DNA of 64,000 nucleotides from Alphaproteobacteria bacterium (GCA_965209065.1 OZ242373.1:646202-710201); one strand, 5' to 3'. Counted from the first letter of the stretch, positions 3,551-45,500 are shown. A program made the numbers and translations. The notes: a model not told the origin generated them from the sequence alone.

Positions 3551-5017
3551 TTAGGTTGTTTGCCTGACAAGTTTTTGTGAGTAAAACAATCGCCCCGAGC
3601 TCCACGTGCGCCACGCACCCCACACCAGAAATGCCGCGCCCACGCCCGCAACGCCATCGTTAAACATATTGACCGGTAAGCCTAATTGATTCCAAATGAT
3701 AACTGCGGATAATCCTGCTGCCATCATCGTGAGGGCGACATTTTGTTTTAATTCTTGACGCAGGCTCAACAACAAAAGCAAGGGAGCAAAAGCCGAACCC
3801 ATACCTGCCCACGCAAATTGCGTTAAACGAAAAACACTTTGTCCGCCGAAGACTATCGCATAGCCGGCAACCGCAAGCGCAAAAACTGTAATGCCTAACG
3901 TAGCAATCTGCATTTCTTTCTTTGTCTCAAATTTTCGCGGTAGAATATCGTGCGTCAAAGCGGACGAGCAACTCAAGAGCAAAGAATCGGCGGTGGACAT
4001 AATCGCCGCGAATATACCGGCGAGCATAACGCCGACCATAAACTCGGGCAATAATTTCGCCGCCATCGTAGGCAAAACCAGCTCCGCGTCCATAGTGCCT
4101 ATCTCAGGCAAATGGACGCGCGTCATCAACCCGACAACCATCGCAAATATAGCAAACAAAATATAAATGCCATAATACCAAACGCGCACCCTAACCAGCT
4201 GATTGCTATTCTCCATCGTCATAAAGCGCACCATAATGTGAGGCTGCCCGGCGGCGCAAAAACCCGAAACAATCCAACCAAAAACAAACAGGGGCGCGCC
4301 AACAAAAGAAAGAAAACTATCTTTTAAGGGCAGCGTGTCGTAGGGGAAGAGGTCTAAGAAATCGCCTTGCGCGGCAAGCGCTTGATAACTTGCGTCAATC
4401 CCCCCTGCCGCCGAGATAGCCGCAATGGATAAAACCGCCATCGATACCAACATCACTAAGGTTTGCGCCACATCCGTCCAAAGCGAAGCGCGAATGCCGC
4501 CCGACACACAATAGACCGCAACCATAATCGCTACGAGCGAAGCGCCCCAAATAGATGGCAGGTCAAACAAGGCTTCGAGCGATTTTCCCCCCGCATTAAA
4601 TTGCGCGGCGGCATAGATGCTCAAAAACATAAGAGAGGTGAGCGCAATCGCGAGGCGCACTACCTGCCAGTTGCCCTTGCCCCAGTTCGCAATCGCTTGC
4701 GCGAAAGTTAGCGAGCCTTGCTCCTCCGTAATCTTCCTCAGCTTGCGATGGACGAAAAGCGAAGTCGCGAAATCACCGACAATCCACCCGAAAAGCAACC
4801 ACGCCACCTCTAACCCAACCATATAGGTGTAGCCCATAAAAGCGACAAACATATAGCCGCTGTTATTCGTGCTCATCGCAGACAAGCCGACAAAAACCGG
4901 CGACACCGAGCGCGACGCAAGATAATAATCACTTGCGGTGCTCTTGCTCTTTAAGGTCGAGCTCACGCCAATCAGAAAGAACAGCGCCAAAAAAAGAATA
5001 AACGAGGCTAATATCAT
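3551..5017 (-). CDS. Sodium:solute symporter family transporter (PutP/PanF-like)
   Basis: 488 aa, about 13 hydrophobic segments, and an SSS-family signature region (GGIRASLWTDVAQ). Confidence 0.7.
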   Translation of the reverse strand: MILASFILFLALFFLIGVSSTLKSKSTASDYYLASRSVSPVFVGLSAMSTNNSGYMFVAFMGYTYMVGLEVAWLLFGWIVGDFATSLFVHRKLRKITEEQGSLTFAQAIANWGKGNWQVVRLAIALTSLMFLSIYAAAQFNAGGKSLEALFDLPSIWGASLVAIMVAVYCVSGGIRASLWTDVAQTLVMLVSMAVLSIAAISAAGGIDASYQALAAQGDFLDLFPYDTLPLKDSFLSFVGAPLFVFGWIVSGFCAAGQPHIMVRFMTMENSNQLVRVRVWYYGIYILFAIFAMVVGLMTRVHLPEIGTMDAELVLPTMAAKLLPEFMVGVMLAGIFAAIMSTADSLLLSCSSALTHDILPRKFETKKEMQIATLGITVFALAVAGYAIVFGGQSVFRLTQFAWAGMGSAFAPLLLLLSLRQELKQNVALTMMAAGLSAVIIWNQLGLPVNMFNDGVAGVGAAFLVWGAWRTWSSGRLFYSQKLVRQTT

Positions 5018-11200: not shown

Positions 11201-11652
11201 CGCACCGCATATTCCCCTTCGTTGGCAACAAGCTCGACACGCTGATAGCCGCTTTCGGCAAGAAATGTTTCCAAGGCACTAAAGGCATAAACCCCTCCCG
11301 CTTTTATCTCTAAGGAAGGAAAGGAATCTTGTGGCGGCACCTTTTGCATCGCCGAAGCCAGAGAAGCAATCAAAATCATGTTTTTGGTAGGCTTTGCTAT
11401 TCTCGCCAACGCAGCCGTGCGCATCGCCGCTATATGAACCGAAGGCGAAAAACTATCATAAGGCAAGCAATCGTAAGCAGGAACGTATAAAGCCTCCGCG
11501 CGCGGCGCAAAAAAGTTAAGCGAAGACAAAGCCCGTGTCGCTTTTATCTCGTCCTCAACAAGCCAGAGAATAGGACGCCCATACTCCGCCGAAAGCTCGG
11601 CAATCGCTTTTCCCTCTATGCCATCTAGAATGCCGCCAATGCTATTTATCAT
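8233..11652 (-). CDS. mfd: Transcription-repair coupling factor Mfd
   Basis: 1139 aa. Superfamily-2 helicase motifs [32 protein letters not shown]. The UvrB-homology N-terminus and C-terminal TRCF domain are collinear with Mfd. Confidence 0.9.
10270..10345 (-). repeat. Arg-rich low-complexity insertion inside mfd ([21 protein letters not shown])
   Basis: GC-rich cgccgccgcc run; it encodes a poly-Arg tract in the linker before the helicase core. Confidence 0.6.
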
Positions 11653-12001
11653 TTTGGTGAAACTGCCTTATGCGCTCTATAATTTGCTGGTGCCGCTGCG
11701 GGGGAGTGGCACCCATTATCCAATCATAAATATCAGGGTCTTTTTCTTCCAGTAAATCCTCAAAGGCTTGGAGCGCCGCCTCATTAAGCCGCCCAGACGC
11801 GAGCATCTCGGACGCGAGCATCTCGGACGCGAGCGTCCCCGACACAAGCATCTGAGACGCGAGCGTCCCCGACACAAGCATCTGAGACGCGAGCGCCCAT
11901 GACGCGAAACGCCCGAGTAGTAAGTCCAGCTCTTTTGTTCCCCTGCGCCACGCCCGATACCGCGCGCGGCGGCAACGTTGTTCTAGGTTTGGCATATTCA
12001 C
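11642..12001 (-). CDS. sdhE: Succinate dehydrogenase assembly factor SdhE (DUF339) carrying in-frame tandem repeats
   Basis: 119 aa. It has the RGxxE motif (RRGTKELDLLLGRF). Its position between mfd and divergent recG is the conserved alphaproteobacterial arrangement. It is about 30 aa longer than typical because of internal repeats. Confidence 0.65.
   Translation of the reverse strand: MNMPNLEQRCRRARYRAWRRGTKELDLLLGRFASWALASQMLVSGTLASQMLVSGTLASEMLASEMLASGRLNEAALQAFEDLLEEKDPDIYDWIMGATPPQRHQQIIERIRQFHQNDK
11796..11890 (-). repeat. In-frame tandem repeats inside sdhE: 15-nt unit x2 (gacgcgagcatctcg) followed by 30-nt unit x2
   Basis: Read directly from the sequence. It encodes LASQMLVSGT LASQMLVSGT LASEM LASEM. 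Confidence 0.85.
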
Positions 12002-17100: not shown

Positions 17101-18455
17101 TCGAGAATATTCCAAACTTCGTGATGTTGGTTCTCAACCATCTTCTTAGATTGCTTCAAGGTGGCAGAGAGACCATGCTTTTGTAGCCCCGCATAGATGA
17201 AGGGCTTAAAGAGCTCTAGCGCCATATATTTTGGCAGCCCGCACTGGTGGAGCTTGAGCTCAGGACCAACAACAATAACAGAGCGTCCAGAATAATCAAC
17301 ACGCTTACCCAAAAGGTTTTGACGGAAACGCCCCTGCTTGCCTTTCAGCATATCCGCGAGCGATTTGAGCGGGCGCTTATTACTGCCAGCGATAGCGCGA
17401 CCGCGTCTGCCGTTATCAAACAGCGCATCAACAGATTCTTGTAGCATTCTCTTCTCGTTGCGAATGATAATATCCGGCGAGTGAAGTTCAATGAGCTTTT
17501 TCAAGCGGTTGTTGCGGTTAATCACACGGCGATATAAATCATTGAGGTCGGAAGTGGCGAAGCGGCTGCCTTCCAACGGCACAAGCGGACGCAGCTCAGG
17601 CGGCAAGACCGGCAGAACAGACAAAACCATCCATTGCGGAAGATTGCCCGAGTCGATAAAAGCTTCAACCAACTTTAACCGCTTTGTTAGCTTTTGTATT
17701 TTAATATCCGTGCTTGCCTCTTCCATCTCTTTGCGCAGTTGTGTAGAAAGTTTCTCTAGGTCGATTCCTTCAAGCATAGTGCGCACGGCTTCCGCGCCTG
17801 TTTTAGCTTCAAATTCATCTTCGCCATATTCATCACCTGCTTGGCGATATTCATCTTCGCTAAGCAGCTGCCCTTGCTTGAGCGGCGTTGTTCCCGATTC
17901 AGTAACGATAAAACTTTCATAATATAAAACGCGCTCTAGGTTTTTTAGCTGCATATCCAACATAAGCCCAATACGGCTTGGCAAGGATTTCATAAACCAA
18001 ATGTGCGCGACCGGTGTCGCGAGTTCAATATGCCCCATACGCTCGCGCCGCACTTTAGAGAGCGTTACTTCAACGCCGCACTTCTCGCAGACGATGCCCT
18101 TGTTTTTCATTCGCTTATATTTTCCACAGAGGCATTCGTAATCTTTTTGCGGACCGAAAATTTGCGCGCAGAACAAACCATCGCGCTCAGGCTTGAACGT
18201 GCGATAGTTTATCGTCTCAGGCTTTTTGATTTCCCCCCAAGACCACGACCTAATCTGCTCGGGACTGGCGATGGAAATACGAATTTGATCAAAGTCTTGG
18301 TCTAGCTTTTTATTTATCTTAAACAAATCCATCGCTTGCGCTTGCGCATCTTCCCGAGAGCTAGGGCTAGGTCTTGAGCTCACGCGTGAGTTCACACGCC
18401 CACCCATTTGGGACGAATCCAATCCAAAATTTGACTTTGTTTCTGTTTGCGACAT
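14163..18455 (-). CDS. rpoC: DNA-directed RNA polymerase subunit beta'
   Basis: 1430 aa. It has the Zn-finger [21 protein letters not shown], the [14 protein letters not shown] catalytic loop, and the trigger loop region. Confidence 0.97.
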
Positions 18456-21400
18456 TATTTTTCCTCTTCTATTTGTGTGTCTTGGGTCAAATCCACATTA
18501 AGCCCCAGCGCGCGCATTTCCATCACAAGCACATTGAAACTTTCAGGCACACCAATGGTAAAAGCATCTTCCCCTTGAACAATTGCCTCATAGGCTTTGG
18601 TCCTGCCAGCAACATCATCAGATTTAATCGTGAGCATTTCTTGTAGCGTGTAGCCCGCGCCATAAGCCTCAAGCGCCCAGACTTCCATTTCGCCGAAACG
18701 CTGCCCGCCAAATTTAGCCTTGCCCCCAAGCGGCTGCTGGGTAACCAAGCTGTAAGGTCCAATCGAGCGCGCATGAATTTTCTCATCAACCAAATGGTGA
18801 AGTTTAAGCATATAAATATAGCCAATCGTCACCGGCCGCGCGAAAGGGTCGCCCGTTCTGCCGTCACGCAGGATAACCTGCCCCGAACTATCAAAGCCAA
18901 CCTGCGTGAGAATGCGCGTGATTTCCTTTTCGTCAGCACCATTGAAAACCGGCGTGGCAATAGGAACGCCTTCGCGCAAACTGCTAGACGACTTAACAAG
19001 CTCGCCATCATTCTTTTTAAGCAAGTCAGAGTTTTCGCCATAAATTTCTCCCCACGCTCTGCGCAAGGTTTGAATGTTTTTATCCTTCTCATAAGCGCTA
19101 AGCGCGTTGCCAATTTTATAACCCATGCCGGCACATGCCCAGCCCATGTGGGTTTCTAGAATTTGTCCGACATTCATACGACTCGGCACGCCAAGCGGGT
19201 TCAGCACAATATCAATCGGCGTGCCGTCTTCGCGATAGGGCATATCCTCAATCGGCATAATTTTACTAATCACGCCCTTATTGCCATGACGCCCTGCCAT
19301 TTTATCGCCCTGCTGTATTTTGCGCTTGATAGCGACAAAAACTTTAATCACTTTCATCACACCGGGTGCTAGGTCTAATCCGTCACGCACCTTTTGAGAC
19401 TTCAGCTCGAAACTTGTTTCAAGCGCAGCCTCTCCCTCATCGAAAGATTTGCGCAGGGTTGAAGATTCATAGCGCGCTTTTTCATCTTGCGGCACAATGT
19501 TCCACCATTGCCTTTGAGGAATGTCGTCAAGAATTTCCTCCGTGATGGTTATTCCGGCTTTTAGCTCGCCGCCTTGCGAAACCTTGCTGCCAATCAAAAT
19601 GTTGCGCAGGCGATTATAGGTGTTGCGGCGCAAAACCGAACGCTCATCTTCTTTATCGCGTAGCAAGCGTTCCACTTCAGCGCTTTCGATAATCATCGCG
19701 CGCTCGTCTTTATCGATGCCGTGGCGGTTGAACACGCGCACATCCACCACCGTGCCTGACGCACCCGGCGGTAAGCGCAAAGAAGTATCGCGCACATCGG
19801 AGGCTTTTTCGCCAAAGATAGCCCGCAGAAGTTTTTCTTCAGCCGTCATCGGCGATTCACTTTTGGGCGTGGTTTTACCGACAAGAACATCACCCGCTTT
19901 TACTTGCGCGCCGACATAAATAATGCCGACCTCGTCTAAATTAGAAAGAGCCTCCTCACCAACATTAGGAACATCGCGCGTGATTTCTTCAGGTCCTAGC
20001 TTGGTGTCGAGCGCAAGCACATCAAAAGATTCAATATGAATAGAGGTATAAACATCATCGCTCACCAGCCGCTCTGATATTAAAATAGAATCCTCAAAGT
20101 TATATCCGTTCCAAGGCATAAAGGCGACCAAAACATTGCGCCCGAGCGCCAATTCTCCGTTATGCGTGGCAGGACCATCAGCAATAATATCGCCCTTTTT
20201 AACATTCTGACCGACATAAACCAACGGACGCTGGTTGATACACGTCCCTTGATTAGACCGCTGAAATTTACGCAAATTATAAATATCCACGCCGGGGTCG
20301 GACGGGTCGGAAACATTTTGGGCGCGGATAAAAATACGCTTCGCATCAACTTGGTCGACAAGCCCCGCGCGCTCCGCCACCACCGCGGCACCGCTATCTC
20401 TCGCGACCACGCTCTCCATTCCCGTGCCAACAAGAGGCGCTACCGGAGTCATCAAAGGAACCGCTTGGCGTTGCATGTTAGAGCCCATCAAAGCGCGGTT
20501 GGCGTCGTCGTTTTCCAAAAAGGGAATGAGTGCTGCAGCAATAGAAACAATCTGCTTAGGCGAGACATCCATATAATCCACTTCGTTTGGTGCCATTAGC
20601 TCGAACTCGCCATTGATACGGCAGTTAATCAGCTCTTCTTGAACCGCGCCCTTATCATCAATTTTGATGTTGGCTTGCGCGATGTGGTGCGCCGCCTCAT
20701 CAATCGCCGAGAGATAATCAACCTCATCAGTAATCTTGCCCTCACGGATACGGCGGTAGGGTGTTTCAATCAAGCCATACTTATTTATGCGCGCGTAAGT
20801 GGAGAGCGAGTTTATCAAACCGATATTAGGTCCCTCAGGCGTTTCAATCGGGCAAATTCTGCCGTAGTGCGTGGGGTGAACATCGCGCACTTCAAAGCCT
20901 GCGCGCTCGCGCGTGAGACCGCCCGGTCCGAGCGCCGAAAGCCTGCGCTTATGCGTGATTTCCGACAAGGGATTGGTCTGGTCCATAAACTGCGACAGCT
21001 GAGACGAACCAAAGAACTCACGCACCATAGACATAATGGATTTAGAATTTATCAAAGCCTGAGGCGCGGAAGTTTCTATATCAACCGAACCCATACGCTC
21101 GCGGACGGTTCGCTCCATACGCATCAAGCCAACGCGATACTGATTTTCCATCAGCTCACCCACAGAGCGCACCCGCCGATTGCCTAAATTATCAATATCA
21201 TCAACCACGCCGCGTCCCGAACGAATTTCAACCAGCATCTTGAGAATAGCGATGATATCTTCTTTTATTAAAGTCGTGTTGTCATCGGAAATATCCAGCG
21301 CCAGCTTGCGGTTGATATTCACACGCCCGACCGGAGATAAATCATAACGCTCCTTTTCAAAGAACATCTGCTGGAACAAAAGCTCTGCGGCTTCTAGCGT

Positions 21401-22561
21401 GGGCGGGTCGCCGGGGCGCATCACGTGATAAATTTCTTTAAGCGCGTCTTCCTTGCTGTCGCACTTATCCGCCACGAGCGTGTTGCGCACATAAGGACCC
21501 ACATTGACATAATCAATATCAAGCAAATTAAGCTCGGCAATATTGAGCTCTTTTATCTGCCCGAGCATGCCTTTGGTTATCTGCGAACCGGCAAGCGCGA
21601 TAAGCTCTCCCGTTTTGGGATGCGCCAAATCGTCAGCAATGAATTTTGTTATCAAGGCATCAAAAGGCAAAGAGAGCCTTTCAATTTTGTTCTCCTTCAA
21701 CTGCTTTATGATGCGACCGGTTATTTTGCTGCCCGCTTCTATGACGACCTCACCCGAAGTGGGGTCTTTCACATTATAATCAAAACTAACGCCACGAAGT
21801 TTATCTGTTTTACACGGGATAACCCAAGCATCATCTTGGCGTTTGTAAAGCGATATATCGTAAAAATACTTGAAAATATCTTGCGGCTCTAGCCCCAGCG
21901 CGCGCAGAATAATCGTCGCGGGAATTTTGCGGCGGCGGTCGATGCGCGCGTAAAGCAAATCCTTAAAATCAAATTCAAAGTCTAACCACGAACCACGATA
22001 GGGAATAATCCGCACCGAAAATAATAATTTACCCGAAGAGTGAGTCTTGCCCTTGTCGTGGTCGAAAAAGACGCCGGGGCTTCTATGCATTTGCGAAACA
22101 ACAACACGCTCAGCACCATTGACAATAAACGTGCCGTTTTCAGTCATCAAAGGAATTTCACCCATATAAACATCTTGCTCTTTGACATCTTTAATAGAGC
22201 GCGAGCCGGTTTCTTCATCTATGTTGAAAACCGTTAGCTGCAACGAACACTTAACCGCAGCTTCATAGGTCAAGCCGCGATGACGACATTCCTCAATATC
22301 ATACTTTGGCTCCTCAAGCACATAATCGATGAAATCTAATTGCGCTTTGCCGGCAAAATCTCTTATTGGGAAAACTGACTTGAAAACGCCATACAAACCA
22401 ACCGCCTTACGCCCGCCTTCAGGTCTTCGCGTTTGAAGAAAGGCGTTGTAAGATTGCTGCTGCACCGCGATAAGATTTGGCATCTCCGGCGCTTGATGCG
22501 CCGAACCAAAAACCTTACGCAACTCAAAAGGTTTCTCCGTTATGGCTTCTTTCATTGCCAA
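18455..22561 (-). CDS. rpoB: DNA-directed RNA polymerase subunit beta
   Basis: 1368 aa. It has the rifampicin-cluster region ([34 protein letters not shown]) and the N-terminus [12 protein letters not shown]. It overlaps the rpoC start by 1 nt. Confidence 0.97.
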
Positions 22562-22566
22562 CGCGC

Positions 22567-22941
22567 CTATTTCAATTCTACCTTAGCGCCTGCTTCTTCT
22601 AACTTTTTCTTAAATTCAGCGGCTTCTTCTTTGGGAACATCGGTTTTAATTTCTTTCGGGGCGGCTTCGACCAAGTCTTTAGCGTCTTTCAAGCCTAGCC
22701 CTGTGATAGAGCGCACTTCTTTAATGACGTTTATTTTTTTGTCGCCCGCTGCTTCAAGGAAGACCGTGAAGCTGGTTTTCTCTTCTTCGGCTTCGGCTTC
22801 GGCACTTGGTGCGGCGGCGGCGGGTGCAGCCATCGCGGCGGCACTCACGCCCCACTTTTCCTCTAGGAGCTTGGAAAGCTCGGAGGCTTCTAAAATTGTG
22901 AGCGCTGATAAATCTTCAGCAATTTTTTCTAGGTCTGCCAT
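22567..22941 (-). CDS. rplL: 50S ribosomal protein L7/L12
   Basis: 124 aa. Ala/Glu-rich hinge and the C-terminal [22 protein letters not shown]. It ends only 5 nt before the rpoB start. Confidence 0.95.
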
Positions 22942-22955
22942 TTGGATTCCTCCTT

Positions 22956-23480
22956 TTAGTCTTTAGCCACGCGCGCGACTAGAACACGCGCGATAGTAGA
23001 GCCAGGTTGATTGAATAGGGTAATTAATTTGCTTGCTGGTTGTGTTATAAGCCCAATTAGCTTCGAGCGCAAGTCATTTATTGAAGGTAAATTAGCAAGC
23101 TCGCGCACCTCGTTTTCTTGGAGCAGAGCGCCGTCCATCGCCCCCCCCAGCAGCTTGAGATTCTCGTGCTGCTTGCCAAAATCGACAATAATCTTCGGAA
23201 TCTGGGTAACCGCGCTCTCATCGTCCGAAGTGGCGATAGCCGTGGGACCCTGAAAGAGGTCTTTGAGCGTGGCGTTTGGCGTGCCTTCGAGAGCTCTCAA
23301 AGCGAGGCGGTTTTTGGTTATCTGTAGCTTGCCCTTACTCGCGGCGAGCTGCTCGCGTAGCTCGGTGAGGGCTGCCACCGAATTGCCCGAATAGTGCGTC
23401 ACCACAACAATTTTGGAGCTGCTAAACAGCTCTTGAAGTTTGGCGACTCTTTCTTCTTTGCGTTCGCGTTGGACACTCAT
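22956..23480 (-). CDS. rplJ: 50S ribosomal protein L10
   Basis: 174 aa, in conserved order between rplA and rplL. Its start codon is adjacent to the rplA stop. Confidence 0.9.
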
Positions 23481-24214
23481 TGTTTTGCCTCGCTCGAATC
23501 TAGACTCTTAGAGTCAAGACTCTTAGAGTCGAGACTCTTAGGATCAACCGACAGCCCGATACCCATGGTTGAGCTAAGAGTTATCTTTTTAAGATACCCT
23601 CCTTTGGTAGCAGCAGGCTTGGCTTGAATAAGTTTATCAAGCAGCGCGCGCGCGTTGCCGAGAATGTTTTCTTCCGAGAAGCTCGCCTTGCCAATGCCGA
23701 CATGAATAATACCCGCTTTTTCTACACGAAACTCAACCGCGCCTTGCTTGATGGACTGAACCGTTTTTTCAACATCCATCGTGACCGTTCCGGTTTTAGG
23801 ATTTGGCATAAGACCGCGCGGTCCCAACACCTTGCCTAGCTTGCCGACAATCGGCATCATATCAGGCGTGGCGATACATCTATCAAAGTTAATCTCGCCC
23901 TTTTCTATTGTTTCTGCCAAATCCTCCGCGCCGATAATATCAGCGCCAGCGCTTTTCGCTTCGTCAGCCTTCGCCCCTTTAGCAAACACCGCAATACGCA
24001 CCGTCCGCCCCGAACCATGCGGTAATTCACACACACCGCGCACCATCTGGTCAGATTGCTTAGGGTCTATGCCGAGATTAACCGCCAAATCAATCGTTTC
24101 ATCAAATTTAGCGACAGCACTTTGCTTCACAAGCTGAACCGCTTTGACAAGGTCATAAAGTTCATCGTTTTCAATGCCCTCTCTTATTTTTTTGCTACGC
24201 TTACCTCTAATCAC
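23477..24214 (-). CDS. rplA: 50S ribosomal protein L1 with C-terminal repeat extension
   Basis: 245 aa. The conserved core ends ...[11 protein letters not shown] and is followed by [21 protein letters not shown]. Confidence 0.9.
23503..23547 (-). repeat. Three tandem 15-nt units, each containing the hairpin GACTCttaGAGTC, in-frame at the 3' end of rplA
   Basis: Read directly from the sequence: gactcttagagtcaa / gactcttagagtcga / gactcttaggatcaa. Confidence 0.85.
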
Positions 24215-24644
24215 CTTTTACCTCCAAGCCCATCGCGCGCGCCGAGCCCGCGATAATTTTTGCGCCCGCTTCAACATCATTGGTGTTTAAGTCGGGCAGT
24301 TTTGCTTGCGCTATCTCGCGGCATTGCGCCATCGTAACCGCGCCCGCCACTTCTCTGCCTGCCAGCTTGCCGCCCTTTTGCAATTTCGCCGCTTGCTTTA
24401 ACAAAAATGAAGCCGGCGGCGTTTTGGTAATAAAATCAAAAGACCTATCCTTATAAATAGAAATGACCGTTGGCAAAGGTTGTCCTGCTTGCTCGCCCTT
24501 TGTCTTGTCGTTGAACTGCTTACAAAATTCGGCAATGTTGATGCCACGCGGACCCAAAGCCGTGCCAATAGGTGGCGCGGGATTCGCTTGCCCTGCCGGA
24601 ATTTGTATCTTTACTTGAGTTTGTAATTCTTTTTTAGCCGCCAT
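24207..24644 (-). CDS. rplK: 50S ribosomal protein L11
   Basis: 145 aa. It starts [37 protein letters not shown], which is the L11 signature. Confidence 0.95.
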
Positions 24645-25195
24645 TAGCTTTTCTCCACTTGTGTATATTCCAAATCAACAGGAGTCGAACGACCAAAAAT
24701 AGAAACTGACACTTTTAAGCGTGAGCGCTCCTCATCTATACCTTCTACCACACCATTGAAAGAAGCGAAAGGTCCATCAGCAACGCGCACTTGCTCGCCA
24801 ATCTCGAAAGCAATGGTCGGCTTGGGTTTATCCACGCCCTCTTGAACCTGCTTCATAATGAAATCAACCTCTTTTTGAGGCACAGGCGCCGGCGTATTGT
24901 CTGAGCCTAGAAAACCCGTCACTCTCGGCAAGTTGCGTATCGCGTTTTGACTGCGGTCGTTCATATCCATCTTGACGAGAATATAACCCGGAAAAAATCG
25001 CTTCTTTGAACTCACCTTCTTGCCACGCTTGAGCTGGGTTACTTCTTCCTTAGGCACTTCAACCGCCTCTATCATGCCGCTTAAATCTTCGCGCTCCATC
25101 AGCTCGCGAATGTCCTCGGCGACCCTGTCCTCAAAATTAGAGTAAGCATGAACGATATACCAACGAGCCTCCATTAACGCGCCCCCAAAATCCAC
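24644..25195 (-). CDS. nusG: Transcription termination/antitermination factor NusG
   Basis: 183 aa. It has an NGN domain ([11 protein letters not shown]) and a C-terminal KOW motif. Confidence 0.9.
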
Positions 25196-25563
25196 GCCAC
25201 CGCGAAGCTCAACACTTGGTCGGCAAGCAAAAAGAAAAGTGCCGCTAAAGTAACCATAATAAATACCATAATTGTCGTGACAACCGTTTCATTGCGCGTC
25301 GGCCAAGTGACATGCGCCATCTCTGCGCGCACCTGACGAATAAAAGTCAAAAAACCAACCCGCTGAGCAGCAGCACTCACCGCCGCGCCAGAACTACTGC
25401 CACTACCACTGGCACTGACATTATCATCGGGCATAGACTTTACCTCTTGTGTCCCTAATAACTCTGCGGTTTCGATAGCCTCTCCCCCGTTAGACGCATC
25501 AGAAGAACGCGCCGAGACAGCCTTTCTCGACTTTTTATGCGGTTTGTTGCGAGCCTTTTTCAT
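25174..25563 (-). CDS. secE: Preprotein translocase subunit SecE (with unusual ~65-aa Ser/Gly-rich N-terminal extension, or an upstream mis-start)
   Basis: The C-terminal 60 aa (FIRQVRAEMAHVTWPTRNETVVTTIMVFIMV...) form the SecE core. The N-terminus is a Lys-rich then Ser/Gly/Ala-rich low-complexity region. Internal Met codons could be the true start. Confidence 0.75.
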   Translation of the reverse strand: MKKARNKPHKKSRKAVSARSSDASNGGEAIETAELLGTQEVKSMPDDNVSASGSGSSSGAAVSAAAQRVGFLTFIRQVRAEMAHVTWPTRNETVVTTIMVFIMVTLAALFFLLADQVLSFAVAWILGAR

Positions 25564-25577
25564 AAAAATAAACCTTG

Positions 25578-25654
25578 TGGCAGGAGTGAAGGGACTCGAA
25601 CCCCTAACCCCCGGTTTTGGAGACCGGTGCTCTAGCCAATTGAGCTACACTCCT
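25578..25654 (-). tRNA. tRNA-Trp (anticodon CCA)
   Basis: Cloverleaf read on the minus strand, with anticodon loop CTCCAAA. It is in the canonical position between tuf and secE. Confidence 0.85.
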
Positions 25655-25683
25655 AAAACAAAAGCACCAGCCTTTCGGCACAC

Positions 25684-26874
25684 CTATTCCAAAATTTTAG
25701 AAACGACACCCGCACCAATCGTGCGACCGCCCTCTCTAATAGCAAAGCGCAACTGCTCTTCCATCGCAATGGGAGCAATAAGCTGCACCTCCATCATGGC
25801 GTTATCACCGGGCATAACCATCTCGGTGCCCTCAGGCAGAGTGATTTCGCCAGTAACATCGGTCGTGCGGAAATAAAATTGAGGACGATACTTGCTAACG
25901 AAAGGCTTATGCCTGCCGCCCTCATCTTTCGTGAGAATATAGGCTTCAGCCGTAAATTTCGTGTGCGGCTTCACCGAACCCGGTGCCGCAAGCACTTGTC
26001 CGCGCTCTACTTCCTCGCGCTTCGTGCCGCGCAATAGAACGCCAACATTATCGCCCGCCTCGCCTTGGTCTAGCAGTTTGCGGAACATCTCCACGCCAGT
26101 GCAAGTCGTTTTGGTGGTGTCTTTGATGCCAATGATTTCAACCTCATCACCAACATTGATGATACCACGCTCAACACGCCCAGTAACAACCGTTCCGCGC
26201 CCTTCAATAGAGAACACATCTTCAATCGGCATAAGGAAAGGCTTGTCTTTCGGACGCTCAGGCTGAGGGATATAGTCATCAATCGCTTTCATCAGCTCCA
26301 TAATGGCTTCTTTGCCGATTTTGTCGTCGCGCCCTTCAAGAGCAGCAAGCGCCGAGCCTTTGATAATAGGAATATCATCGCCGGGGAAGTTGTAAGAAGA
26401 AAGCAACTCGCGCACCTCTACTTCCACAAGCTCCAGCAGCTCCTCGTCATCAACCTGATCCACCTTGTTTAGAAAAACACAAAGCGCAGGAACACCCACT
26501 TGTCGCGCCAAAAGAATATGCTCGCGCGTTTGAGGCATAGGACCATCAGCCGCCGAAACAACCAAAATGCCTCCGTCCATTTGCGCCGCACCGGTAATCA
26601 TGTTCTTCACATAGTCAGCATGACCCGGGCAATCAACATGCGCGTAGTGGCGGTTTTCGGTCTCATATTCCACGTGAGCCGTGGAAATAGTAATGCCACG
26701 CGCCTTTTCTTCGGGCGCCTTGTCGATGTCGTCATAGGCAGAGAACTCAGCCCCGCCCACATCAGCAAGCACCTTAGTTATCGCCGCGGTGAGCGTCGTC
26801 TTGCCATGGTCGACGTGCCCAATCGTGCCGATATTACAATGCGGTTTTGTCCGCTCAAATTTCTCTTTAGCCAT
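25684..26874 (-). CDS. tuf: Elongation factor Tu
   Basis: 396 aa. [23 protein letters not shown]-motifs; full-length EF-Tu. Confidence 0.97.
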
Positions 26875-27436: not shown

Positions 27437-28648
27437 ATGCTACAAGTTTTACAACAAGATTTTGAAAATATAAAAGATCATTTTAACGAGCTTAATATGG
27501 ACGAATCTCATTTTGAAAATTCTAACGATATATGCACTCCATTAGAATGTGTCAAAGAGATGGTTGATGTTATCCCCAAAGAGTTTTGGAAAAGGAAAAG
27601 CCTTAAAATACTAGATAGTTGTTGTGGCAATGGAAATTTTCACGCTTACATCCAAACAAAAACAAATTTGAAAAATTTATACTTCAATGAGATAAACAAG
27701 AAACGGGTAAAAAATGCTCTAAATATATTTGGGGAAAGCATAAATATAACAACACAGGATTTCCTGTCATTTCCAGACAAAGAGGGATTTGATTTGGTCG
27801 TTTCAAATCCTCCTTATGCTAAATTTAATAATGGTATTAGGGTATCTAAAAATCATAACCTATCTAGAGATTTCATATTAAAAGCACTCAAAATCACTAA
27901 AATTAACGGATATATTTTATTTATTGCTCCAAATAATTGGATGTCGTTTTCCAATAGAAATTTATTACCGTCATTAATGAGTCAATATCAGTTTATCCAC
28001 TTAAACATCAATGGAGCAAAAAAATGGTTTCCAAAAGTTGGCTCATCTTTTACTTGGTTTCTATTGAAAAAAGTACCAAACAAGAAGCCCTTCAAAATAG
28101 AAAATGGCTATATTAAAAATGACATCCAACTTGCTAGACTAGATAGAGGTGTTAATTTTATCCCCCTTTATTATTCAAAAGAGACAAGAGCAATTTTTAA
28201 TAAAACCATCAACGCAAAAAATAAAAAGTATAAAATAGAGACTTCTAGTGATTTACATCATTATACAAAAAAGCACTTGTTGCGGGATAGCTCAAGCGAG
28301 AGATTTTGCTATAAACTAATCCATACTCCAACGCAAACCGCTTGGAGCTCTGTGCCTCATAAATATCAAACGGGATGGAAGGTTTTTATTTCCCTAACGA
28401 ATCAATACCAAACTTTCATAGATAATTGTGGAATGACGCAAAGCGTCGCATTTATTCGTTGTAAATCAAAAAAGGAGGCATTAAAGGTGGAAAAAGAATT
28501 GAATAATAATGTTTTTAAGTTCCTTAATAATTTAACACGATACGGCAATTTCAATAATGTTAAAGTATTACAACAATTTCCGCTTTTTTCTCAAGTTAGA
28601 TTAACTGACAAAGAAAAACTTTTTATTGAATATTTTTTAAGGACTTAA
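27437..28648 (+). CDS. N6-adenine DNA methyltransferase (gamma-class amino-MTase; motif I DSCCGNGNF, motif IV NPPY)
   Basis: 403 aa in a markedly AT-rich region. FxGxG-like motif I (LDSCCGNGNFHAY) and the catalytic NPPY; about 250 C-terminal aa are consistent with a target-recognition domain. Confidence 0.7.
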   Translation: MLQVLQQDFENIKDHFNELNMDESHFENSNDICTPLECVKEMVDVIPKEFWKRKSLKILDSCCGNGNFHAYIQTKTNLKNLYFNEINKKRVKNALNIFGESINITTQDFLSFPDKEGFDLVVSNPPYAKFNNGIRVSKNHNLSRDFILKALKITKINGYILFIAPNNWMSFSNRNLLPSLMSQYQFIHLNINGAKKWFPKVGSSFTWFLLKKVPNKKPFKIENGYIKNDIQLARLDRGVNFIPLYYSKETRAIFNKTINAKNKKYKIETSSDLHHYTKKHLLRDSSSERFCYKLIHTPTQTAWSSVPHKYQTGWKVFISLTNQYQTFIDNCGMTQSVAFIRCKSKKEALKVEKELNNNVFKFLNNLTRYGNFNNVKVLQQFPLFSQVRLTDKEKLFIEYFLRT

Positions 28649-28650
28649 CA

Positions 28651-29172
28651 ATGGCAAGTAAGTATAATAAAAATGATAGGCCATTAAAAAAGCTAGAAGA
28701 TTTATTTAATGAACTGAACTATAGCCAATTCCCTTATAAAAAGCACTTCATTCACTTGTGTAACATTACACCTGATGCTGAAAATGAAAAACTTGAAATA
28801 AAGAGTTTAGGAAATGATAAAAAGATTAATGATAAAGGTGTAGTATATGTCTTTGTTATAGGGAAAAAGATATTCAAGATAGGAAGTAGTACGGTTTCTA
28901 TAAAAGAAAGAATCGGCTCTTATAACTCTGGCAAAATTCTATACAGAGGGGCAGGAACTAACTCTACCACAAATTACTTTGTTCTACAAAGTTTTATTAA
29001 AATAGGCAAAGTCGTGAAAGTTTACGCCTACTTTCCCAATAAAAAACATTATACAATTTTTGGAGAAAAAGGGGTTGAAGCTTTCCCGCCCGCTAAAAAA
29101 ATAGAAAAAAAGATTTTAACTGATTTAAAGAAAAAATATGATCGTTTGCCAATAGGATGTAGCCAAAAATAA
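28651..29172 (+). CDS. Small GIY-YIG-like nuclease candidate (putative cognate restriction endonuclease)
   Basis: 173 aa, starting 2 nt after the MTase stop. GVVYVFVIGKKIFKIGSS...KERIGSY resembles the GIY...YIG...R core. Same low-GC composition as the MTase. Confidence 0.45.
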   Translation: MASKYNKNDRPLKKLEDLFNELNYSQFPYKKHFIHLCNITPDAENEKLEIKSLGNDKKINDKGVVYVFVIGKKIFKIGSSTVSIKERIGSYNSGKILYRGAGTNSTTNYFVLQSFIKIGKVVKVYAYFPNKKHYTIFGEKGVEAFPPAKKIEKKILTDLKKKYDRLPIGCSQK

Positions 29173-29313
29173 GAAAAACTAAAAACCTTACAAGATGCCC
29201 AGTATCTCCATGTCTAACAGCCTTGAAAATATAGCCTGAGTTGATTGCCTCTTGACAGAATGAAAAAAGCCCCTATCCTTACCCTTTAGGAATTTTTACC
29301 ACTCGGAGGAAAT

Positions 29314-30060
29314 ATGAGAAATATCAGCGGCGAAACTATTATCATTACTGGTGCCTCTTCCGGCTTTGGCGCCGAAACTGCACGAATGCTCGTCAAGGAC
29401 AAGGGCGCGAATGTCGTCTTGGGTGCTCGGCGCGCCGAAAAACTTCAGGAGCTCATCAAGGAACTCGGCGCGGATAAGGCTATCGCCAAGCCGTGCGATG
29501 TCCGCAAGTGTGATGACCTCAAGGCTCTCGCCGCCGCTGGTGTCGAGAAGTTCGGCACCATCGATGGTCTCGTCAATAACGCCGGGATTATGCCTCTGTC
29601 TATGCTCGCCGCCGGGCGCACCGACGAGTGGGACGATATGATAGACACCAACATCAAGGGCGTGCTTTATGCCATCAATGCCGTGCTGCCCATAATGATA
29701 AAAAATGAGAAGGGCTCGATTGTCAATATCTCTTCGGTTGCGGGCAGACGCGTTAGCCCCGCGGCGGCGGTCTATTCGGGGACGAAGTTCGCGGTGCACG
29801 CCATCTCTGAGGGATTGCGCCAAGAGGTCGCGCCCCATAAGATTCAAGTTTGTTGTGTTTATCCCGGCGCCTTCCAAACCGAGCTTGCTGGCTCTATCAA
29901 GGACGACAAGGTGCTGGAGATGGTGCGGAAAAGATTTAGTGGCGCGGGTGCTATCGGCGATGCGAAGCACATCGCGAATGCGATTGTGTTTGCTTTGAGT
30001 CAAGACCCATCGGTAGCGGTGAACGAGCTGATGCTGCGCCCTGTCGCACAAGATATGTAG
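29314..30060 (+). CDS. Short-chain dehydrogenase/reductase (SDR) family oxidoreductase
   Basis: 248 aa. TGASSGFGAETAR (TGxxxGxG), NNAG, and the catalytic YSGTKFAV (YxxxK). High GC, in contrast to the flanking AT-rich genes. Confidence 0.85.
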   Translation: MRNISGETIIITGASSGFGAETARMLVKDKGANVVLGARRAEKLQELIKELGADKAIAKPCDVRKCDDLKALAAAGVEKFGTIDGLVNNAGIMPLSMLAAGRTDEWDDMIDTNIKGVLYAINAVLPIMIKNEKGSIVNISSVAGRRVSPAAAVYSGTKFAVHAISEGLRQEVAPHKIQVCCVYPGAFQTELAGSIKDDKVLEMVRKRFSGAGAIGDAKHIANAIVFALSQDPSVAVNELMLRPVAQDM

Positions 30061-30155
30061 CACCACAGCGAGACCTTAAAAGATATATCAGGCACGGAAA
30101 TATGGTGCCTGCTTGCCAATAGCTTGACTGACTTTTAATTTTAGTTCATTATTTA

Positions 30156-31910
30156 ATGCAATTCAATCAAACACAAGGGGGAAAGTGTATGCCATCACCT
30201 GAAATCGAAAGCGGAAAAATATTGGTAAAGAAAATTTTCTCTGAACTATGGTTTCGCATCCCAGAATACCAACGCCCATACGTCTGGGGAAATGATGAAG
30301 TAAATAATTTGCTAGACGACATTTCCTATGCTATGCAAGGTGCGTCTGATTCTGAATACTTTTTGGGTTCCTTCGTTTATCAAACTAAACCACCTAATCC
30401 TGCTGCTAATATTCCATTTCAGGAGTATGATTTGCTAGATGGGCAGCAACGCATGATCACGCTTTTGTTGTTATTCTCTGTTATAAGGGATTTGACAAAA
30501 GATGAAGACGACAAAAAAGAATGTCAAAAGTGTATTTTTGTAGAAGCTGAACCTAGACGCAAGATTCCCGAGCGCTCTCGGATTACTTTTGGCATTCGCC
30601 AAGGCGCACAGAATTTTATTGAAACCCTAGTGAAGGAAAAAGGTTTTACCTTAAACAATGAATCACTAATGGACTATGAAAAATCAGGCAATGATACCAG
30701 CATCCAAAATATGGCTAAGGCTATTGGTTATATCAAAAAATTCTTTGCCAATAATACAAATATCAAATTTAATAAACTATTAGAATTTATTTTAAATAAA
30801 GTTTTACTGATCTATGTTTCTACCGAAAATCTAGATGATGCATTTCGGTTATTTACCATATTGAATGCTCGCGGCGTCTCCCTGCGTAATAGCGACATCT
30901 TGAAATCTATCAACCTTGGAGCTTTAACTACTGAGAAAGATAAAGAGAAATATGCTAAGCTTTGGGAAGATGCGGAAAGTGAATTAGGTGAAGAATTTGA
31001 CCGCTTCCTCCATTTCATTCGCACACTATTGGTAAAAGAAAAATCTCGCCTTAGCCTGTTGCAAGAGTTTGAAAATAAAATCTACAAACCTAAAAGCGCA
31101 GGGCAAAAGAAGCCATTACTAGCTAAAGGAAAAGCAACCTTCGAAATGGTGGATAAGCACTTAAAGCTATACCAGAAATTGTTCAATGATTCAAACTACG
31201 ATCTAACCAAAAGTTTTGAATTTGATAATCTTCTCAAAGTGATGAGAATTGGGATACCTTCTTCCGACTGGATTCCGCCATTGCTACATTATTACAATAA
31301 GTTTGGAAAAACGCGCCTCTATAATTTCTTGCAAATACTCGATAACAAGTTTTCAACAGATTGGATTATACGAGAAACACCAACGGCACGTACTGAGGCA
31401 ATGAATGCTGTTATCAAGGCTATTGACAAAAGTAAGACTGCCAATGATGTGTTCTATTCAAAAGACCTGAATATAATAGATTACGATGAGTTACAGCAAA
31501 CGCTAGAAAGCAAAATATATGGCAAGCCATTTGCTCGCTATATCCTTTTGAAGTTGGATTATCATTTCCGAAGCCATGATCAAAAAATGAACTTTGAGAC
31601 CTTATCCGTTGAGCATATACTTCCGCAAACTCCCAAATCAAGCAGTCAGTGGGTGAAAGATTTTAGTGAAGATGAAAGACTTGAGCTAACAAATACACTT
31701 GGTAATCTTGTATTGATTACACGTCGCAAAAACACATCTCAGGGGCGGCTTGATTACACGGAAAAGAAAAAACGCTATTTCGAGAAAAATATAGACACAT
31801 GCCCAAATTCTTTACGAGTTTTGCAAAAATACAACCAATGGACGCCTAAACAACTAAAAGAAAACCATAAGCTTGTTATCAAAAAACTCATGAAGTATTA
31901 TCCTCGCTAA
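30156..31910 (+). CDS. DUF262/DUF1524 two-domain protein (GmrSD-like type IV modification-dependent restriction enzyme family)
   Basis: 584 aa, AT-rich. N-terminal ParB/DUF262 motif (IPEYQRPYVWGNDEV; DGQQR). C-terminal DUF1524 His-Me finger-like region (SVEHILPQTP ... LGNLVLITRRKNTSQG). Confidence 0.7.
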   Translation: MQFNQTQGGKCMPSPEIESGKILVKKIFSELWFRIPEYQRPYVWGNDEVNNLLDDISYAMQGASDSEYFLGSFVYQTKPPNPAANIPFQEYDLLDGQQRMITLLLLFSVIRDLTKDEDDKKECQKCIFVEAEPRRKIPERSRITFGIRQGAQNFIETLVKEKGFTLNNESLMDYEKSGNDTSIQNMAKAIGYIKKFFANNTNIKFNKLLEFILNKVLLIYVSTENLDDAFRLFTILNARGVSLRNSDILKSINLGALTTEKDKEKYAKLWEDAESELGEEFDRFLHFIRTLLVKEKSRLSLLQEFENKIYKPKSAGQKKPLLAKGKATFEMVDKHLKLYQKLFNDSNYDLTKSFEFDNLLKVMRIGIPSSDWIPPLLHYYNKFGKTRLYNFLQILDNKFSTDWIIRETPTARTEAMNAVIKAIDKSKTANDVFYSKDLNIIDYDELQQTLESKIYGKPFARYILLKLDYHFRSHDQKMNFETLSVEHILPQTPKSSSQWVKDFSEDERLELTNTLGNLVLITRRKNTSQGRLDYTEKKKRYFEKNIDTCPNSLRVLQKYNQWTPKQLKENHKLVIKKLMKYYPR

Positions 31911-42500: not shown

Positions 42501-45500
42501 ATTGAGGCAGCACTTAAATTAAGTGCACCACTGCTTCCATTCAAAGCAAAGTGTCCGCTTAAAGAAATATCTTCAAGCGCGGTAAGAGTGAGTGTCTCCA
42601 AAGCAACATAAGCGAACGCCATTGCAGAATGCAACGTGATGTTATTCGCGCTGAAGTTCGTATTATTGCTGTAATTTATGCTACCCCCTTGAGCGTTAAG
42701 CTTCAAATTGCCCGCGCCAAGCGTAATCGTGCGCGGCGGCGTAATACTAGCGGTTTGCGCTGTGAAAGACAGGTCCTTATCTGTTTCAATAACCCAGTTA
42801 GGCAAGGCAATATCTAAGGTGCCGGTGTAAGTGATGTCAAAAATTGCGGTATTAAAACTTGGGTTGCCCGAGAAAGATTGAGCGGTGACGAACAAAGTGC
42901 CGGTGCCAATATCATAGTTGCCCGCGAGGGTTAGCAGCCCTGATGAAACCAACAGAGTAAGGTTTTTATTGCTCGGCGTAGTGGGGGCGCCTGCTGCCGA
43001 AGAGATGGAGAGATTTCCTGCCACGCTAATAGAAGAGTTTGCTGTGCTAGAAAAAGCCATTGGCTGGGCGGTGGAGGTGAAGGAGAGACCATCTAATCCA
43101 TTTATGGAGCCATGGACGCTTACCGCGCGCGCGGTAACAACGCTTGAGCGAGTAAAGGTAGCTATCGCACTGCCGTTAAGCGCAATGCTAAACTGCGCGC
43201 CTGAGGTTGGCGTTCTATTGGTTAAGTTTATTTGCGGTATGGTTAAGATGATACTATTGTTTGCGGTCAAAGACAAAGAAGCGTTTGGCACGGTAGAAGA
43301 GTTGCGCAGAGAATTGGCTATCTTCGTCAAAGTGATAGAAATAGAATTAGCCGTTAAAGATACATTTTCTTTTATGAGTTCAACATCTAAAGCTGAAATA
43401 GTAAAACTAGCGTTTTCAAAAATGACATCACTAAAGTTAAAGCTGACATTCTTTTCAAACGCATTGATGGTTAAACTTCTACCATTTTGGAATACGCTCT
43501 CTCTTAAATTGAGTTCGCCCGTTTCCAAATAGTTTAGAGTAAGATGAGAGGTAGATAAACTCGTTGGAAATGTAATAGCCACACTTTCTAAAGTGATGGC
43601 GGCAACATTGAGATTACCACTAAGCGTGACGCTCTGTGTGCCGACAACCATAACATTGAGCCCGCGTTCGGCTTGGCTCGGCGCTCTCGCCGATGTTAAT
43701 GAAACAATATTTCCTGTTAAAGTAACATCTGCGCTTTTTGAGAAGAGAATTTTACCTAAAGCCTGCGTTTTTAGTGTTAGGTCATATTCACCGAGTGAGA
43801 TATCGCTAGTAACCTTGATATCACCTTGCGAGGACAAAGATAAATCACCCATCATTATCTCTATGCTGTTGAGAGTAACAACGGTGCGTGTTTCTATTGT
43901 TATGTTCGTGTTGATTGGGGTTGTGTCATCGCTGGCATAAGCCGAGAGGGAAAACGCATTAACCTTGAGAACGACGCCCCTTTTCACAGCTCCATCTAAA
44001 CTTAAAGAGTAAGTTTGTATGGAGTTGGTTCTTGCTGAGCTAATTGTTGTTAGTCCCCTATCGTATTGTGATGTCCCTGCTCCGCCAACAGAAATTCTAG
44101 CCCCTGACGACACGGTCAAGGAAATTTCTGTCGCGCTCTTTGTGATGGGGGGTGTCGAAGAGGAATAACCAAAATGATAATAGGTAAAAGAAAAAGTATT
44201 CGCTCTTATCTCAGAGCTGGCTGACGGGGTAGACAATCTCAAAGCAGAAATTTCAAGCGTTCCTGTGCCAATATCAATAATCCCATCTACAACGAGCGCA
44301 CCGGCATTAACAGAAAGATTTTTATTGCTAGCCGTAATAACCGTGCCTTCAGGCGCTGTAGAAGTAAGTTTAATAGTCTCATTCGCAGTTAAAGAGACAT
44401 GACTGCTTGTTGAAAAATTAATGAGGGTGCTTGCTTTTATTTCTAATAGCGCGTCAGCACTAAGATTGGCGTTCACATTGACAAACGCGCCTTCAAAAGT
44501 GAGGTCGGTAGTAGAGCTCGTTATCGGCACATCAATGGTGGCTATATTCGTTGCCACAAATTTACCTTCGTTCCCTTTCACACTCACGGAATTTGTTAGC
44601 CCATCGCCCGTAGCGCGCGCCGAGCGCTTTAGAGTAATATTCCCCGCGCTGAACGTTATTGTAGAATCCGTCTCTAATGGAAAATTGAGTGTTGCGTGCA
44701 ATGCTAACGTTAGCAAAGCGCCGGTAGCATTTATATTGTTGTTGATATTTAATATTGGCGAGTCTAACAACAGCGGAGACGAGGCTTGAAGAGAGCTACC
44801 AATTCTAATGCCATCGGTTCCAACAAGATTCAATGTTTTTCCTGCGGCAACGATATTTGTTATCCCTCCTGAGTTATTGGCAGTTGCTATGCCGTCGATA
44901 GTAAGCCACCTGCCCGTTAGGATTATATTTTCGCTTGTTGCTGATTGAATATTTATTGTTGAAGTGTTCTCTGCTCTTAAAGTGCCGGAAGAGGTTATGT
45001 TGCTAAATATATTTAAGCTAGGCGCTCTTAAAGTAAGCGAGCCACTTGTTTGATTGATAGTGTTATTGATGGTAACAGAAGCTGTTCCTCTAAAAATGGT
45101 TAGGACGCTATTGGAACTGCTTATGGTAGTGGTTGTTGCACCACTAAGGCTCATATTAGAGCCGCCTAGAATTATATGCTCGCTAGAAGAAGGCGCAGTG
45201 TTATTTAGCGCAGTGACATTGATTAGGGACAAACTACCGATGGAGGAGATATTTCTATTAGTGTTTAGAGTGGGCGTGTTCAAGGTGAGTGTGCCACTCG
45301 TTTGATTGATGGTGCTACTGGTGGTAATAGAAGTCGTCCCATTGAAAATAATTCCGCCGCCTCTGGTGCTAGTCATGGTAATCGTTTCCACATCACTGAT
45401 GCTCACATTAGAGCCTTCTAGGGTTACAGGTGCTGTGGTGGCTAAAGCATTGTTTAGCGTAGCGATGTTTTTTAGGGTTAAATTGCCACTGGTAATGATG

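Follow-up and report, generated by a model that had tools for sequence, protein, structure and literature searches.

The rplA-rplJ junction analysed here most probably combines two coincident things: a clade-wide compaction of its gene cluster, with coupled genes, and a near-neutral slippage repeat in the tail of ribosomal protein L1. We put the probability of this reading at about 85%. Both kinds of feature are already known, the first as overlap coupling and the second as coding VNTRs, and the junction is a further instance of each.

The cluster runs on the minus strand in the order tuf, tRNA-Trp, secE, nusG, rplK, rplA, rplJ, rplL and rpoB, within the 64-kb stretch of DNA that was analysed (the window). 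Its relevant features are as follows:

24207-24644, minus strand: rplK (L11), overlapping rplA by 8 nt; its start shares 1 nt with the nusG stop
23477-24214, minus strand: rplA (ribosomal protein L1), 245 aa, GTG start; Pfam PF00687 at residues 29-219 (E = 2e-69)
23498-23542, minus strand: in-frame 15-nt array of three units (KSLDS three times) within rplA, located by Tandem Repeats Finder, codon register from the sequence
23496-23537, minus strand: predicted single imperfect hairpin of the array (minimum-free-energy fold)
23488-23491, minus strand: GAGG, the Shine-Dalgarno sequence (SD) of rplJ
23477-23480, minus strand: ATGA, the rplJ start overlapping the rplA stop
22956-23480, minus strand: rplJ (ribosomal protein L10), 174 aa; Pfam PF00466, residues 5-101 aligned to profile positions 3-98
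22942-22955, minus strand: rplJ-rplL spacer of 14 nt with a strong AAGGAGG SD
22567-22941, minus strand: rplL (L7/L12), 124 aa; Pfam PF00542 and PF16320
22556-22566, minus strand: rplL-rpoB junction, 5 nt to a TTG at 22561 or 11 nt to an ATG at 22555
18455-22561, minus strand: rpoB, as read from the TTG start

Reading the TGA and the ATG from the window sequence revealed a shared stop and start, with no untranslated nucleotides between rplA and rplJ. The absence of an untranslated rplJ leader, as proposed in a first-pass annotation of this DNA, was thereby confirmed, although that annotation had placed the L1 stop adjacent to the rplJ ATG: the two are indeed in contact, but as an actual overlap (ATGA, 23480-23477). 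Because the L10 Pfam domain aligns residue 5 of the protein to profile position 3, this ATG is the true start of rplJ. Glu-Ala codons in the SEAKQ tail of L1 form the GAGG of the rplJ SD, which lies 7 nt before the ATG. A purine-rich GAGG or AGG motif occurs at a comparable distance from the rplJ start in most relatives. A promoter scan found no sigma-70-like minus-strand site close to the junction.

Stop/start overlaps of the ATGA and TGATG type are well known to support translational coupling (Huber et al. 2019, PMC6728339). Since the ATGA or TAATG overlap comes together with an SD inside L1 codons, L10 synthesis is most likely bound to L1 translation, judging from the anatomy of the junction. 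The earlier suggestion of a coupling mechanism is thus apt for the junction, with its overlap and its SD in the upstream codons, but not for the repeat to which it had been attached. The junction shares with the described cases the 4-nt ATGA, the co-directed genes of one complex and the SD in the upstream ORF, and the overlap recurs throughout the clade. It departs from E. coli and the other loci compared, over 100 and mostly alphaproteobacterial, which keep a long regulatory rplA-rplJ spacer, and coupling is deduced here. In E. coli, rplK-rplA is one of the ribosomal protein pairs known for translational coupling.

The other junctions of the cluster are similarly tight. Because rplK shares 8 nt with rplA and 1 nt with the nusG stop, an L1-binding leader has no room either. 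The rplL-rpoB spacer had been put at 5 nt; it is indeed nearly gone, and this length holds for the TTG at 22561, while the ATG at 22555, which a gene caller picked as the rpoB start in the near-identical contig L088, gives 11 nt. With either start the junction is too short for an attenuator.

Exact matching of the window L1 yielded no contig; relatives were reached by protein search and through the members of the L1 cluster, and nine contigs (L081-L089) were fetched. The search also returned a protein identical to the window L1 (P0002), on a 1.69-Mb contig, and the four clade assemblies reported as larger than 1 Mb measure 1.6-1.9 Mb. The top-scoring long L1 matches, P0001 (406 aa) and P0003 (322 aa), were set aside as head-to-tail duplicated L1 on contigs of about 1.2 kb, most likely assembly chimeras and not fusions.

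In all nine related loci (L1 70-100% identical), rplA and rplJ overlap by 1 nt (TAATG) or 4 nt (ATGA) and have no spacer. These junctions are those of L081-L083 and L085-L087 (70-82%), of L088 and L089, and of L084, for which the 4-nt overlap was taken from gene calls. In contrast, the rplA-rplJ spacer had a median of 345 nt and a minimum of about 200 nt in 72 GTDB loci among the matches listed, mostly alphaproteobacterial, and a median of 311 nt and a minimum of about 180 nt in 41 metagenome loci among the matches listed, over-extended alignments being discounted. The L1 scans of genome and metagenome contigs behind these numbers reached relatives of at most 67% identity among the matches listed, and they serve as a background set only. 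An exact-pattern scan of metagenome contigs for the rplJ start region gave no match. The remaining gaps followed the same trend: the nusG-rplK gap is -1 to 5 nt in the clade versus a median of 152 nt in other loci, the rplJ-rplL gap 13 nt versus 55 nt, and the rplL-rpoB spacer 5-36 nt (14-36 nt in L081-L087, with 14 nt as the clade value in the comparison) versus a median of 250-292 nt elsewhere. On this comparison of sequences, spacer loss is a trait of the lineage as a clade.

This clade-wide pattern bears directly on the proposal that a C-terminal extension of L1 had replaced, descended from or substituted for the L10 leader. The repeat is absent from the six clade loci with a readable junction (L081-L083 and L085-L087), and a single unit is present in L088. 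As rplA and rplJ overlap without a spacer in these six repeat-less relatives and in the one-unit strain, the leaderless junction is older than, and independent of, the repeat, and the proposed replacement does not hold. Nor does the extension fill a leader-sized space. The tail of the 82% identical relative ends in VDPKTLSEAK and that of the window in VDPKSL[[12 protein letters not shown]]SEAKQ, each followed by the stop; with only 13 codons more, the latter falls far below 150-400 nt, which argues that no leader of that length has been read through.

L1 tails in fact vary freely in length and sequence across the clade. The unnamed L1 relatives with 70-82% identity measure 232-240 aa and carry tails such as VDPKTLSEAK, IDPKTISEAK or IDPKSINEVTQ. 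A sister lineage with about 70% identical L1 (L086, positions 3650-3723, and proteins P0009, P0012, P0127 and P0130) displays length variation of its own, with L1 proteins of 234, 240 or 246 aa and tail variants such as IQPGAA-IQPGTS versus IQPGTS and IQPGAAIQPGTSQS versus IQPGTSQS; its rplA-rplJ overlap in L086 is again ATGA.

The repeat itself was found as first described to the extent that L1 is extended by three in-frame 15-nt units, encoding KSLDS three times. Tandem Repeats Finder reported it at 23502-23541 with a period of 15 nt, 2.7 copies and 96% matches, and in codon register the units span 23542-23528, 23527-23513 and 23512-23498. Specifically, the codons GTT GAT precede the array; the five codon positions of the successive units then read CCT, TCT and TCT at the first position, AAG in all three at the second, AGT in all three at the third, CTC, CTT and CTA at the fourth, and GAC, GAC and GAT at the fifth. 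The array is followed by TCG, by the SEAKQ codons AGC, GAG, GCA, AAA and CAA, and by the stop TGA. The units thus differ at synonymous third positions and by CCT versus TCT, and because several synonymous positions are involved the array is not brand new. A pattern search over the 64 kb of the window found no further occurrence of the unit.

Each unit had been described as a GACTC-tta-GAGTC stem-loop. The perfect palindrome GACUCUAAGAGUC (GACTC-TAA-GAGTC) is present twice, at 23518-23530 and 23503-23515, whereas the third copy (23533-23545) carries 2 mismatches. Moreover, structure prediction does not return three tandem hairpins, but folds the array into one imperfect hairpin of 17 bp. Its predicted energy is -20.6 kcal/mol as RNA (z = -2.8 against shuffled sequences) and about -9.7 kcal/mol as DNA. 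On the protein level, an AlphaFold2 model of L1 (26-sequence alignment, mean pLDDT 80.6) has its fold end near residue 228, and residues 230-245 have a pLDDT below 50. The repeat is therefore predicted to lie in a disordered C-terminal tail.

The copy number of the unit varies between near-identical strains. The 90%-identity cluster of the window L1 holds two further members, P0122 (245 aa, three units) and P0121 (235 aa, one unit). Contig L088, with 99.0% DNA identity to the window over 12.3 kb, carries one unit and an L1 of 235 aa; contig L089, with 99.5% identity over 8.1 kb, carries three, the first unit having CTA for CTC (synonymous). Both contigs come from the same sample. One unit in L088 versus three in L089 and in the window indicates that the repeat is variable in copy number. 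The flanks, the SEAKQ tail, the SD and the ATGA are identical across the three alleles sampled, and the one- and three-unit alleles differ by exactly 30 nt, which shows that the units are dispensable.

The same contigs also differ in a defence island at 27437-31910 of the window (L088 1149-6760; L089 2305-6778), flanked on one side by the tRNA-Tyr/tRNA-Gly genes, which lie upstream of tuf, and on the other by the giant TPS-protein genes. In the window and in L089 it contains an Eco57I-like N6 methyltransferase, a 173-aa T5orf172 ORF and a GmrSD endonuclease, and in L088 a HaeIII-like endonuclease, a D12-class methyltransferase and a phage-type integrase. All three share an adh_short (SDR) gene inside the island, and the GC content of the island is lower (38-44%).

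Coding VNTRs or minisatellites that arise by slipped-strand mispairing are used in MLVA typing, for example of Wolbachia (PMC3287509). The L1 array has the features of such loci: head-to-tail units of a length that is a multiple of 3, a number of units that varies between near-identical strains, and an intact frame and flanks. It differs from them in that the hosts here are core housekeeping genes (L1 and SdhE) instead of surface or contingency genes, and in a marked preference for 15-nt palindromic units.

This preference became apparent when Tandem Repeats Finder was run on the whole window. Seven arrays had a period of exactly 15 nt, five of which were convincing, and all five are in frame. 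Besides the L1 array, they are:

1412-1466: convincing, pentapeptide PRVVT-like
11794-11894: convincing, pentapeptides LASQM/LVSGT
36286-36320: convincing, pentapeptide VPRDS
40179-40228: convincing, pentapeptide TSAQD
29493-29523: weak
61005-61036: weak

The five convincing arrays reside in a 746-aa ORF, SdhE, L1, a TPS-domain protein and a 3760-aa ORF. In SdhE/Sdh5, the succinate dehydrogenase flavinator (11642-12001, minus strand), the repeat interrupts the domain midway with about 34 additional aa, so that the Pfam Sdh5 match is split in two. The SdhE proteins of conspecific strains measure 117, 112 and 107 aa, and distant homologues of 84-91 aa are without the array. Perfect inverted repeats of 5 bp or more occur in three of the five convincing unit types versus 3.7% of tandemised background 15-mers (P about 5e-4, a binomial estimate). 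In addition, a period of 15 or 30 nt accounts for 7 of the 11 short arrays in the window versus about 17% of those in about 1 Mb of other loci, an excess that generic slippage does not explain. Because palindromic 15-nt arrays also occur in unrelated genes, the hairpin unit is a general trait of the slippage-prone repeats of this genome and is not specific to the junction.

Rickettsia palindromic elements (RPEs) are in-frame insertions into conserved genes of reduced alphaproteobacterial genomes, and they are dispersed copies, of about 100-150 nt, of one element family. The arrays described here resemble them as palindromic DNA tolerated in frame in housekeeping proteins of a small alphaproteobacterial genome, but every array has its own 15-nt unit.

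Two further repetitive or giant loci were noted in the window. Three consecutive giant ORFs on the minus strand (32061-36527, 36530-47812 and 47945-57817; 1488, 3760 and 3290 aa), the first with a TPS secretion domain, suggest a two-partner-secretion or adhesin locus and a host- or surface-associated lifestyle of this 1.7-Mb genome. At 62789-63979, a 108-nt (36-aa) unit is tandemly repeated about nine times, with a match of about 72%, in ORF 62630-63913, which looks like a repeat-domain protein.

A broader claim is that a process in this species, and perhaps in the clade, makes and varies in-frame 15-nt palindromic minisatellites in housekeeping and other genes, and that the copy number of the rplA-tail hairpin tunes termination-reinitiation into rplJ. 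We regard this combined claim as rather doubtful.

Still less credit is due, in our view, to the array being a functional RNA, either a leader substitute or a tuner of coupling that would act via L10(L12)4 binding, ribosome pausing or RNase processing; we rate this as highly unlikely. The predicted fold does speak for it, as the array folds better than shuffled sequence, with energies of -20.6 to -26.4 kcal/mol in the three-unit alleles and a z-score that reaches -4.4 in L089 (z = -2.5 for the 161-nt junction of the window), and as the hairpin of these alleles stops 4 nt upstream of the rplJ SD. However, the region is translated, so that ribosomes would melt the structure, and the array is absent from the six distant clade relatives whose junctions are equally leaderless, with one unit in a 99% identical strain. 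Moreover, the alleles show no consistent difference in how accessible the rplJ SD and AUG are predicted to be: the probability of the SD being unpaired is 0.28-0.51 in three-unit alleles, 0.43 in the one-unit allele and 0.20-0.72 in relatives. Some effect of a three-unit hairpin ending 4 nt before the SD on reinitiation or mRNA stability is conceivable but judged unlikely.

As for the array standing in for an L10 leader, the hallmarks of an L10(L12)4-binding RNA are a K-turn that is followed by a bulged C, and a hairpin whose internal loop has two unpaired adenosines (Fu et al. 2013, PMC3616713). The predicted fold of the array, a plain imperfect GACUC/GAGUC hairpin, has no K-turn, bulged C or two-A internal loop. 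The conservation expected of an L10 leader is not found either, the array not being conserved even within the species (one unit in L088). Rfam searches of the whole window at the gathering threshold gave no ribosomal protein leader, and a search over 22300-25800 at E <= 10 gave no RF00557 match, only a tRNA and chance-level matches.

In control searches over 18 and then 8 other loci, however, RF00557 missed most alphaproteobacterial spacers. Because of this the negative Rfam result for the window is weak when taken alone, and the argument rests on the missing spacer. The sole sub-threshold RF00557 match (29.6 bits, 1 of 8 controls) lay in the rplA-rplJ spacer of a Hyphomonadaceae MAG (L034, 4729-4878), and an nhmmer comparison of this leader-like segment with 69 spacers gave almost no matches. 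The few Rfam matches among the control loci imply that Rfam coverage of alphaproteobacterial spacers is poor. A Rhodo-rpoB motif (70 bits) was observed in the rplL-rpoB spacer of a Rhodobacter MAG (L078, 6030-6125).

The array thus resembles the L10(L12)4-binding rplJ leader (RF00557; PMC3616713; Yakhnin et al. 2015, PMC4538822) in its position just upstream of rplJ and in its predicted structure, but it is coding instead of 5′UTR, consists of about 45 nt of simple palindromic repeat and has no covariance-model match. The suggested leader substitute fails on these grounds and on the strain-variable copy number. A junction-specific role is further contradicted by the in-frame 15-nt arrays in four unrelated genes of the window, with palindromic units in three of all five.

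An equally small chance is left for the KSLDS pentapeptides as a selected new function of the L1 protein, for instance a charged flexible tail at the L1 stalk or E site, or an extraribosomal role. The synonymous differences between units, which leave KSLDS exactly repeated three times in both the window and L089, are compatible with purifying selection, and some selection maintaining the array is conceivable from this divergence. However, the prediction for the tail is disorder, a conspecific strain is missing two of the three units and the closest other species all of them, and L1 tails are free in length and sequence in the clade.

The array might otherwise act at the DNA level, with its six GANTC sites before rplJ controlling an internal promoter or replication-linked expression. 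The window as a whole is strongly depleted in GANTC, the site of CcrM-type methylation (119 sites versus 200 +/- 15 expected from dinucleotide shuffles), yet six sites fall within 42 nt at 23496-23537, the same span as the predicted hairpin. This cluster, however, follows automatically from repeating a unit with two sites. Given also the lack of a sigma-70-like minus-strand promoter near the junction in the promoter scan, the two sites only in the one-unit strain and the different palindromes of other 15-nt arrays, we hold this to be very improbable indeed.

Finally, although the source is apparently a metagenome assembly and L088 and L089 have only 6-8x coverage by their contig names, an origin of the extension in a frameshift, a sequencing error or a repeat assembly error can practically be dismissed, since the frame continues into SEAKQ and matches the SEAK tail of relatives, the three-unit allele recurs in the independent assembly of L089 with one synonymous change, all three alleles share the same flanks, SD and ATGA, and the alleles differ by exactly 30 nt in an array far shorter than a read.

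In the reading that we favor, compaction with coupling on the one hand and a near-neutral repeat on the other, the nusG-rplK-rplA-rplJ-rplL-rpoB cluster of this uncultured alphaproteobacterial lineage has lost its intergenic regions. The rplJ start overlaps the rplA stop and has its SD encoded in the last L1 codons, and L10 would be made either through termination-reinitiation or because ribosomes translating L1 unmask the site. Since there is no leader, leader-based L10(L12)4 feedback is impossible at this position. The excess of L12 may be set by the strong SD of rplL itself in its 14-nt spacer, and neither feedback by L1 at rplK nor attenuation ahead of rpoB would be operable at its usual position in the clade. 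Independently, the KSLDS unit would have changed copy number by replication slippage, leaving conspecific strains with one or three units, and its palindromic nature probably favors slippage via hairpins on single-stranded DNA. As the unit is internally palindromic, the "hairpins" would be a by-product. Neither the reading frame nor the SD or the overlap is disturbed by the repeat, which is most likely neutral or almost neutral.

On its own, the repeat would be an ordinary, probably neutral length polymorphism that is little informative. Should its copy number nevertheless tune reinitiation, it would be a heritable and reversible dial on the dosage of L10, L12 and RNA polymerase, operating in the absence of the classical leader controls of L1, L10 and rpoB. 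Strain-variable in-frame 15-nt repeats, even in core proteins, may provide a set of markers for strain typing and hint at a slippage bias; together with the clade-wide spacer loss, the 15-nt palindromic bias is a modestly interesting side result. The L1-binding and L10(L12)4-binding leaders are two of the three most widely conserved ribosomal protein regulatory RNAs (PMC3616713). Having lost the sites of both, and that of the rpoB attenuator, the clade would offer a natural setting in which to ask how the stoichiometry of the stalk proteins is maintained without leader feedback.
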